Below, one piece after another: positions 41,694-44,366 of a stretch of 64,000 nucleotides of DNA. The notes beneath the pieces were generated by a model, which worked only from the letters and a program-made list of their open reading frames with translations, was not told the DNA's origin and did no database searches. Each line of letters starts with the position of its first letter. Position 1 is the first letter of the stretch. Made by a program: the position numbers and the translations under genes. The DNA is from an uncultured Nitrospiraceae bacterium (GTDB taxonomy: Bacteria; Nitrospirota; Thermodesulfovibrionia; Thermodesulfovibrionales; Dissulfurispiraceae): NCBI GenBank assembly GCA_963727805.1, contig CAVSHF010000003.1, positions 1,824,001-1,888,000 of the forward strand, given 5' to 3'.

Positions 41694-42549
41694 GGGCCCC
41701 TTCCGTCCAGAATTTATAATATACATCACCAACTACTATTGTGACAACGCTAAGAAGGACGCCTCCGAAGACATCAACGACATAGTGATACCGACAATAC
41801 ACCGTGGCGAAAATAAGGAGGATGACCGGAATTAATAGAAGGCGGAAAATGTTTCGGGCATATTTATATGAAAGAAAAAGTACGGTTAGAGCAATGCCGG
41901 TATGACCACTCGGGAAGGCATCGCGTTTCACCCCTTCGAGAAGGTTCAGAAAATCCTGTATCGGTTTTGATACCAGAAAACCTCCCACATCTGCTGTCTG
42001 AAGATGTTGCATGGCGTAACGGGGCCCAAGGGCCGGGAAGAGCATATAGCCGACATATGACAGATAAAAACAGAAAAGAATGAGGAAGAGGGATTTTTCA
42101 AAGACACCATTCTCGCCCCGCACCTTTAAAAAAACCCCTAATGAAATGGGCATGAAGTAATACGTCGAATAGGCGATTTCAAGTATGTCAGTAAGCGGGG
42201 GATAAATAAATCTTTCAAGATAAACCGTAGGATATCCACCAAAGATTAGATAGTCGAACCGAATTAGCAGGTAATCGATATCCTGAGGATTAATACGATG
42301 CACGATCAGTCCGAGGCTATCGAAGATTATCAGCACGCTCACTACGGGAAAGATAATATCCCGTGTTATTGCGAGAAACGAATTCATACCGCCAATACGA
42401 CTGAGGATGATCTGAAATAAAATGAGAGAACTAAAAATAATCATTAGATATCCCGCTGCTGGGACCACATGGTGAAAAAGTGCCGTGATGATCAAGAGAA
42501 GAAGGCTGAAAAATATGGTAAGAGTGTCTGCCGGCCTTAATCTGCTCAC
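41677..42549 (-). CDS. PAP2-superfamily membrane phosphatase / phosphotransferase
   Basis: FPA.GPR, AFPSGH, RYHY..DV..G. Confidence 0.85.
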   Translation of the reverse strand: MSRLRPADTLTIFFSLLLLIITALFHHVVPAAGYLMIIFSSLILFQIILSRIGGMNSFLAITRDIIFPVVSVLIIFDSLGLIVHRINPQDIDYLLIRFDYLIFGGYPTVYLERFIYPPLTDILEIAYSTYYFMPISLGVFLKVRGENGVFEKSLFLILFCFYLSYVGYMLFPALGPRYAMQHLQTADVGGFLVSKPIQDFLNLLEGVKRDAFPSGHTGIALTVLFLSYKYARNIFRLLLIPVILLIFATVYCRYHYVVDVFGGVLLSVVTIVVGDVYYKFWTEGAHGSSV

Positions 42550-43043
42550 AACTTACCTAGAATCCTTCTAAGGGTCTTCTCCTTTTTTGAGGGCCTGAAG
42601 GGATTCCCTTTCCGTTCATGTCTTTCATCCTCGTCGTCCTCCTCGACTTCCCGGACTTCATCTGCGTTTATTCTATGCGTTCTCGTTATGATGTCCATGA
42701 ATCTTTCCGGTGCTACGGCCACTGATCCGGCAGCCCACGCATGGTCGGCGATGTCCCGGTCAGCAGTGACCACGATCCATTCCCTCCGCTCCTGGGTGAC
42801 GGTTTTTTTTATGACATCGTCAGCCCGTTCGCCAAGCCGTGTAAAGATCACTTTCACGTTGTCCCTGAATGATAGCTGCTGAGTTGCCATGCCATTTTTG
42901 TATCCGTCAAAGACGACCGTGATATCGTGATCTTTCACCTTACGGTATTCAATCACGGCATCTAGCAAAGTATCCCTCGCTTTCTCCATGTCCTTGTGGA
43001 AAATGCCGATGACGTTATATCCATCGATAATGATATGCGAAAT
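42546..43043 (-). CDS. NYN-domain ribonuclease (YacP/Rae1 family), probable ATT start
   Basis: IIIDGYN motif lies upstream of the ORF-track ATG; VVFDG, ADD.I, VVT.DR motifs; GGAGGT SD 6 nt before ATT at 43043. Confidence 0.85.
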   Translation of the reverse strand: MSHIIIDGYNVIGIFHKDMEKARDTLLDAVIEYRKVKDHDITVVFDGYKNGMATQQLSFRDNVKVIFTRLGERADDVIKKTVTQERREWIVVTADRDIADHAWAAGSVAVAPERFMDIITRTHRINADEVREVEEDDEDERHERKGNPFRPSKKEKTLRRILGKL

Positions 43044-43132
43044 AACGATACCTCCAGGCTCGTAACACCATCCTCCCCTCTCTTAGTTAAGAAGGAGAAA
43101 AGGGGGAAGTTCCGTGGGTAGGCAAAGGAGGG

Positions 43133-43300
43133 TTATGCTCTGTTTGATGGTCTCCGGCTAATCTGCTCCCACATCTCTTCATCGATTGCGTCGATATATG
43201 CTGAAACCGGGTAAGTTCTGCCGCACACCGTGCAGCACAGAATGACCGATTTTCAGCCGATCAGCAACCGGATGAGCCCCTTGCAATCCCTGCATTTCAT
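43133..43300 (-). CDS. Small dual-CxxC selenoprotein (55 aa, UGA=Sec at codon 16; missed by ORF track)
   Basis: MKCRDCKGLIRLLIG-U-KSVILCCTVCGRTYPVSAYIDAIDEEMWEQISRRPSNRA; in-frame TGA at 43255-43253 followed by a SECIS-like hairpin. Confidence 0.8.
43202..43255 (-). promoter_or_regulatory. Bacterial SECIS element
   Basis: Apical stem UGCUGCAC/GUGCGGCA with GGU loop 23 nt after UGA; basal pairing of UGAAA/AUCGG with CCGGU/UUUCA. Confidence 0.75.
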
Positions 43301-43358
43301 CCCAATATCCCTTGCTTCCATTGGAAAAACAGATATCTAATAATATACCATAACATTT

Positions 43359-43910
43359 ATGATTAGACCGCATCTGCTATTGAATAATGAACTCGTCTGG
43401 CATGACAGGAAGAAATGGGATGAGGCCGTGTCACTACTCAGAGATTTGTTCGCTCATCATAACAGTGAGCTCTCTAAAATGGGCTGTTTGGCTATGGCAC
43501 TTAGAGGTCATATTGATGCCGTCGATCACTTCATTCAGCAAAACACTGCACAGGTGTGTCCTGACTGCCAAAAAGTCTGCTGCATCAACAGGCATGGGTA
43601 CTATGACTATCAGGACTTGATCTACATAACAGCGCTCGGACTGACACCGCCACTTTACGGAGAAGGTATCGTGGACACAGCTCCTTGTCAATTCCTTTCC
43701 GAATGCGGCTGCGCGATAGAGCGCTCCATCAGGCCTTTCAGGTGCAACTGGCACTTCTGCACCGACCTGATGGTCTTCATGTCATCAGGTCCTGCAAAGC
43801 CCTTGCGTGAATTCAACCTGCAATTTAAAGAACTGCAAGCGCTGCGACAAGCGATGATCGACTATTTCTTCGATATCCTTTCAAGAGACACAGACCGTAT
43901 CCTGCCATAA
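43359..43910 (+). CDS. Cysteine-cluster protein (YkgJ/CxxCxxCC-like)
   Basis: CPDCQKVCC ... PCQFL..CGC.I....RPFRC...FC. Confidence 0.7.
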   Translation: MIRPHLLLNNELVWHDRKKWDEAVSLLRDLFAHHNSELSKMGCLAMALRGHIDAVDHFIQQNTAQVCPDCQKVCCINRHGYYDYQDLIYITALGLTPPLYGEGIVDTAPCQFLSECGCAIERSIRPFRCNWHFCTDLMVFMSSGPAKPLREFNLQFKELQALRQAMIDYFFDILSRDTDRILP

Positions 43911-44159
43911 GTGTACGCAGCAGACGCTGCTGCTATTCGGAATTCTTAGACAATAGTGCTCTCACAAAAGAAGTCTGAATGGGTTTTGACGTGGGTCTTT
44001 TGCTTATTGATTAATAACTCGATATACTATAACGGGCAAATGAGATGGCTGCCCTCAACGACTTCTATATGAAGACTTAATTTCTCATAAGGTCGGAAAT
44101 ATCATCATAACAAATGCCCGCGGGCCACTGTGTCCCGTAAGGCGAAGGAGGAGGAAACT

Positions 44160-44366
44160 ATGGCAGTGTACAAGTTCATTGAATTAGTCGGGACTAGTGA
44201 GGAATCCTGGGAGAAAGCAGCAGCGTCGGCTGTCGAGCTGGCAGCAAAATCATTGCGTGAACTTCGGGTGGCCGAGGTCATTCAGACGGATATGACAATC
44301 GAAAATGGCAAGGTCGCCTTGTACCGCACAAAGGTCAGGCTTTCGTTTAAATACGAGGGTGCCTAA
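44160..44366 (+). CDS. Dodecin family protein
   Basis: VYK.IELVGTS.ESWE.A, YR.KV.LSFK; ATG 44160 after GGAGGAGG. Confidence 0.9.
   Translation: MAVYKFIELVGTSEESWEKAAASAVELAAKSLRELRVAEVIQTDMTIENGKVALYRTKVRLSFKYEGA

Follow-up and report, generated by a model that had tools for sequence, protein, structure and literature searches.

A small dual-CxxC selenoprotein gene of family NF041197 in a Nitrospiraceae genome: predicted recoding, coding-region hairpin and candidate functions

A short minus-strand gene of an uncultured Nitrospiraceae bacterium is almost certainly a member of family NF041197 in which the UGA at codon 16 is decoded as selenocysteine (Sec), as judged from profile matching, conservation and folding of the DNA. 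The gene lies in the window, the term used here for the whole 64,000-nucleotide stretch that was analyzed. The family is already known: its prediction dates from 2007, NCBI maintains a curated entry for it and a 2026 review includes it in a table. The discovery value of the gene is small and the value that remains is practical. NF041197 emerges as a near-universal small selenoprotein of the selA-bearing lineages of the phylum whose gene is fragmented by gene callers, and natural variants at residues 16 (Sec or Cys) and 52 (Cys or Ser) could serve directly as controls in biochemical work.

Reading frame and family membership

The first-pass annotation had described a minus-strand open reading frame that remains protein-like across an internal TGA. 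Translation of positions 43133–43300 (minus strand, stop codon included) matched this description: the frame continues for 55 residues across one in-frame TGA at codon 16 (43253–43255, minus strand) and ends at TAA. The first CxxC motif (Cys3 and Cys6; 43283–43294, minus strand) and the second (Cys23 and Cys26; 43223–43234, minus strand) furnish predicted zinc ligands, and residue 52 (43145–43147, minus strand) is serine at the site of the cysteine that is usual in the C-terminal xC[DN]R motif of the family. A likely ribosome binding site, AAGGGA, was read from the sequence at 43308–43313 (minus strand). An alternative in-frame ATG at 43321 would add seven residues to the selenoprotein. The start at 43300 is favored because AAGGGA is positioned 7 nt upstream and because ATG occurs there in 24 of 30 homologues, the other six of which have GTG, TTG, CTG or CTC. 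No match to a sigma-70 promoter or an intrinsic terminator was found within 42950–43500. The gene region lay under contigs of three metatranscriptome runs at a depth of 2–3.4, with 4–5 differing letters per 150 among the differences listed, values that derive from contig records and represent small shares.

The read-through peptide matched the NCBIfam profile NF041197 with 56.3 bits across profile positions 1–52 of 53, compared to a curated cut-off of 40, and the gene scored 46 bits against this profile in a six-frame search of the genome. No Pfam family matched the peptide over its cut-off. The NCBI-curated entry NF041197.2 (CxxC_Se_CxxC) is named ‘dual CXXC motif small (seleno)protein’, and its layout of two CxxC motifs flanking a single Sec or Cys in a protein of about 55–70 residues was found in the window gene. 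Thus, the small dual-CxxC (seleno)proteins that the first-pass annotation had mentioned exist as a curated family. Table 1 of the 2026 review contains NF041197 twice, as OS_HP3 (RxU) and as hypothetical protein DW (GxU), and a RefSeq representative of the family is given in the same review (PMC13188914). OS_HP3 was predicted computationally in 2007 from an Olavius symbiont metagenome (PMC1976440), and DW was reported by deep-Sep; one OS_HP3 gene escaped deep-Sep itself (PMC12013277). No published function for the family was found in the literature searched.

A search with the single sequence against a set of 5.8 billion proteins yielded no candidate. A profile search of the 90%-clustered set returned 16 matches, 15 of which were truncated and began downstream of the Sec codon, which indicates that ordinary gene callers cut the selenoprotein gene. 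The suggestion that standard callers miss the gene therefore is correct for public gene calls, but does not extend to NCBI, which curates the family, or to the review with its RefSeq representative.

Codon 16 and its decoding

Matches to NF041197 were detected in 53 of 61 genomes, comprising the genome of the window and 60 relatives, and all 59 places listed contained exactly one TGA. Across an evenly drawn sample of the phylum (301 genomes) the family was present in 127 genomes. The 133 places in this sample had one TGA in 130 cases, no stop in two and TAG in one partial match, and both stop-free copies possessed Cys at residue 16. Within the loci that were extracted, column 16 was TGA in 46 and Cys in seven (L052, L066 and L068–L072). 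Against 1.84 billion representatives, 108 matches were listed, 106 of which were parsed; five long ones were left out and 70 displayed the motif spacing. Residue 16 in these 70 of the matches listed was Cys in 62, Trp in four and another residue in four, three of which look unrelated. The Trp residues probably reflect TGA translated as Trp by the gene caller. Homologues with TGA and homologues with Cys at position 16, for which the first-pass annotation had proposed to look, were both found.

The conservation extended to both sides of the TGA, as the same annotation had anticipated for the downstream part. An alignment of 31 Sec forms, which is a biased set consisting of the window copy and the 30 best-scoring loci, revealed that C3, C6, U16, C23, C26, Y35 and W44 are invariant. 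Residue 16 is conserved and is distinct from the four ribbon cysteines. Position 52 was Cys in 39 of the 46 Sec forms and in six of the seven Cys forms, is Ser in the window copy, and is variable and often without Cys in distant members. The Cys forms L052 (genome G297) and L066 (genome G313) are found in genomes that keep selA and are natural controls for loss of the SECIS element.

Distribution of the family was compared with that of the selenocysteine synthase gene. Comparison of match lists placed selA in 119 of the 127 gene-bearing genomes. Two of the remaining eight have selB, and the other six (63–96% complete) had neither selA nor selB at an E-value of 1e-60. In families that lack selA the selenoprotein gene was found in 0 of 142 genomes, and three selA-bearing families (10 genomes) were without it. 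The TGA is a stop in the output of gene callers, and in principle it could be a genuine one, with the frame being a pseudogene, a product of chance or the result of a sequencing error. This explanation is extremely improbable: a single TGA recurs in more than 120 genomes and was verified at column 16 in 46 loci, the sequence is preserved before and after it, counterparts with Cys exist, compensatory changes occur in the downstream stem, and the gene is restricted to lineages with selA.

The genome of the window, which is 100% complete, contains selA, selB and two selD genes, each over its cut-off, and a tRNA-Sec(UCA). Thus, the complete selA, selB, selC and selD set that the first-pass annotation proposed as a check was recovered. 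The selD paralogues are located at C3:482960–483883 and C5:157506–158420, both on the minus strand, and each bears an in-frame TGA and a downstream hairpin. The genome also harbors a second dual-CxxC copy at C3:2016723–2016884 on the minus strand (L067:4724–4885), which scored 36 bits, under the cut-off of 40, and has a 7-pair hairpin of its own. An RF-1-domain gene is positioned upstream of this copy and a PF03692 gene directly downstream. Two family matches per genome were observed in five of seven genomes of the same genus. In a relative from the same order, a sequence was found that matches a protein labelled Ca. Magnetomonas plexicatena, and the source organism therefore is probably a Nitrospirota of the Thermodesulfovibrionia type.

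The hairpin within the second CxxC motif

In bacteria, hairpin-bound SelB brings Sec-tRNA to the UGA codon. Recoding of codon 16 as Sec in the window gene would similarly involve SelB and a hairpin within the coding region. Folding and homologue conservation located a SECIS apical stem-loop at 43219–43237 (minus strand) with an 8-bp stem and a GGU loop at 43227–43229 that overlaps the codons of the second CxxC motif. The loop begins 23 nt after the UGA and the hairpin alone folds with −10.8 kcal/mol. The 71-nt region around the UGA folds with −26.6 kcal/mol (z = −3.26), and none of 200 shuffled sequences folded as well. A G-looped stem of at least 8 pairs at SECIS distance accompanies 1.3% of the 149,995 TGA triplets in the genome, counting any frame on both strands.

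The bacterial SECIS model in the legend to Fig. 2A of the 2026 review has a loop of 3–9 nt, a stem of 4–16 bp, G in the first two loop positions, a spacing of 16–37 nt and a minimum free energy of −7.5 or lower (PMC13188914). The window hairpin, with its 3-nt loop, first loop base G followed by G, and the stem length, spacing and energy noted above, agrees with all four published criteria for bacterial elements as presented in that source. It differs from the consensus in that its stem coincides with the coding sequence of the second CxxC motif itself and in that no conserved lower stem was found.

The first-pass annotation had proposed both a GGU-looped hairpin after the UGA and basal pairing that includes the UGA. 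The former was substantiated. Basal pairing over the UGA was present in the minimum-energy fold of the window copy, but the consensus of the 31 homologues retains only a 7-pair apical stem, and conserved basal pairing therefore was rejected. The consensus stem was 94.9% paired with 14 compensatory cells, and neither value was attained in any of 500 shuffles. Slid controls for the stem were 18–50% paired.

As codons of the second CxxC motif make up the stem, amino acid conservation confounds conservation of the stem and synonymous codon choice therefore was tested. Among the 46 Sec forms, the codons for the third and fourth cysteines were TGC in 90 of 92 cases compared to 67 of 92 for the first and second cysteines, the loop base was G in 45 forms, and threonine codons at the loop position were ACG in 16 of 16 instances versus ~24% ACG in the long frames of the genome; these counts and the associated Fisher P values overstate independence as the genomes are related. 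The matching cysteine codons of the seven Cys forms were TGC in only seven of 14 cases and the loop base was G in two of the seven. The codon constraints imposed by the hairpin were lost in distant Cys forms. The stem follows in part from the amino acids R-C-x-x-C-G, and one recent Cys copy still possesses a partial stem. Overall, the pattern of synonymous codons indicates that the SECIS hairpin is under selection.

Gene context, predicted fold and candidate functions

Two AF2 runs with pLDDT values of 78 and 74 agreed on strands at residues 9–14, 19–23 and 29–31 and on helices at residues 32–35 and 41–48, a predicted secondary structure that is compatible with a C4 zinc ribbon. Residue 16 was placed in the turn between strands 9–14 and 19–23, outside of the four-Cys site. 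The C-terminus was modelled poorly (pLDDT about 50), such that the model does not establish that residue 16 reaches residue 52. No fold stood out in the Foldseek and VIA lists: the matches were weak, with a best E-value of 0.1 in Foldseek (Thermus thermophilus ZifS, 8yoz) and a best Z-score of 3.4 in VIA (RNA polymerase subunit I, rmsd 2.4 over 38 residues). Zinc ribbons account for several of the top matches, and Rieske and unrelated folds scored nearly as well. A sequence search of the PDB gave generic zinc-finger matches only (best E-value 0.007). The models suggest that a zinc ribbon is the likely fold of the selenoprotein, in which Cys3, Cys6, Cys23 and Cys26 are predicted to bind one Zn. 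Prediction of a homodimer for a natural Cys-form homologue with Zn gave a score of 0.02, which speaks neither for nor against a dimer. A thioredoxin-fold selenoprotein was considered and rejected: Sec is situated 10 residues after Cys6 and 7 before Cys23, there is no UxxC or CxxU motif, and no match to such a family was obtained.

The preferred proposal, to which about an even chance is assigned, is that the protein is a small zinc-ribbon scaffold with a single exposed selenolate that acts on a partner by thiol/selenol redox chemistry. The four cysteines would hold a structural Zn, and Sec16 would be an exposed, reactive redox nucleophile that in most members may be resolved by the C-terminal Cys52. 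The window copy has Ser52 in place of this cysteine and so would need an outside reductant. Most uncharacterized selenoproteins are presumed to be redox proteins according to the 2026 review (PMC13188914). The lack of a thioredoxin fold and of UxxC or CxxU motifs argues against a redox role, as does the absence of Cys52 from the window copy and from many distant members.

Gene neighborhoods were compared in 45 related loci with about 1.5 kb on each side, following removal of 14 duplicates and the window locus. A YacP/Rae1-like NYN nuclease gene was downstream in 25 loci, a Cys-rich 183-aa gene was oriented head-to-head in 23, a PAP2 gene was present in 15 and a weakly PF03692-like gene (E-value 0.021, below the cut-off) was downstream in 12. 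Six loci, those of family f22, have upstream a gene that from its sequence we take to be aspS-like. A locus search with a single Cys homologue produced 15 loci, five of which were kept as true relatives and 10 of which were weak and were dropped. The Desulfovibrionaceae-type Cys forms adjoin genes that presumably are priA- and rlmE-like. No conserved redox-enzyme neighbor was found among the related loci. As the neighbors differ by lineage and no partner is common to all, the gene context gives no function.

The 183-aa Cys-rich open reading frame (43359–43910, plus strand) has the pattern CPxCxxVCC ... C ... GC ... RPxRCxWxFC, matched no Pfam or NCBIfam family and, on visual inspection alone, is similar to YkgJ-type cluster proteins. 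Close to the selenoprotein locus, at 44130–44366 on the plus strand, is a dodecin gene (Pfam PF07311), and none was seen near homologues within about 1.5 kb. The YacP/Rae1-like NYN gene (42546–43043, minus strand) has an apparent ATT start at 43043, 7 nt after GGAGG. The start position of this gene in 26 loci was ATT in 16, ATC in two, ATA in one, TTG in two, ATG in two and another codon in three, which suggests a conserved AUU start. The AUU start of infC is coupled to IF3, and by analogy that of the NYN gene possibly is as well. A literature search found nothing on an AUU start in YacP/Rae1-like genes.

The Cys-rich neighbors raise a different function for the selenoprotein, namely metal or Fe-S handling in which Sec16, alone or together with Cys52, would be an additional soft ligand that either binds a metal (Cu, Hg, Ni) or Fe-S unit or passes it on. 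YkgJ-type cysteine-cluster proteins are possible recipients. In addition to the head-to-head and weakly PF03692-like genes enumerated above, the PF03692 gene directly downstream of the in-genome paralogue encodes a CxxCxxCC protein. According to the 2026 review, about 70% of predicted selenoprotein ligand interactions involve metals (PMC13188914). However, the link to Cys-rich neighbors is confined to near relatives and was not seen in the six f22 loci or in the five Desulfovibrionaceae-type loci. Moreover, the divergent 183-aa gene has no match to Pfam PF03692, and profile comparison was weak with a probability of 9%. Metal handling is viewed as rather unlikely.

The adjacency of separate lineages to translation and RNA genes points in another direction, that of a translation-linked accessory factor. 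Its zinc ribbon would dock on an enzyme of RNA processing or ribosome rescue, and Sec16 would act as a switch that responds to redox state or selenium. The NYN nuclease gene and the aspS-like gene are in keeping with this role, as are the RF-1-domain gene upstream of the paralogue, the presumed rlmE-like gene that follows the selenoprotein homologue in L068, and faint matches to Trm112 and S27e with E-values of 0.11–0.58. Such variation of neighbors between lineages nevertheless is expected for a small gene among housekeeping genes, and the matches to Trm112 and S27e score well short of the cut-offs and extend over no more than the generic ribbon. An accessory factor of this type is distinctly improbable. 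A yet more specific scheme can be envisaged in which the protein acts in anaerobes as a zinc-ribbon switch that is gated by selenium and controls ribosome quality control, with cycling of Sec16 against a C-terminal Cys regulating an RNA-acting partner such as the downstream Rae1/YacP-like nuclease. This speculative scheme, which would tie mRNA decay to selenium and to redox state, is very improbable. Membership of known ribbon families was rejected on score for Trm112/YcaR (12.7 bits compared to 77 for NF038101, and 10.6 compared to 22 for PF03966) and likewise for S27e.

In relation to known systems, a selenolate-presenting zinc ribbon would share with small C4 zinc ribbons, including Rpb9/RPC10, topoisomerase I, ZifS (8yoz), S27e and Trm112, a pair of CxxC knuckles with a beta hairpin between them. 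The best structural matches span about residues 1–45, and all are weak with E-values of 0.1 or worse and Z-scores of 3.4 or less. NF041197 has a Sec or Cys at the hairpin tip and an acidic helix with a terminal [DN]R motif, neither of which was found in the C4 ribbon matches. Within NF041197, the window gene has the CxxC-x9-U-x6-CxxC spacing, the downstream SECIS element and the Cys homologues, and its GxU-type context resembles the DW entry as tabulated in the 2026 review (PMC13188914). The differences from the family are minor: the window copy carries an additional Cys22 and has Ser where a C-terminal Cys is usual, and the genome also carries the second, more divergent copy.
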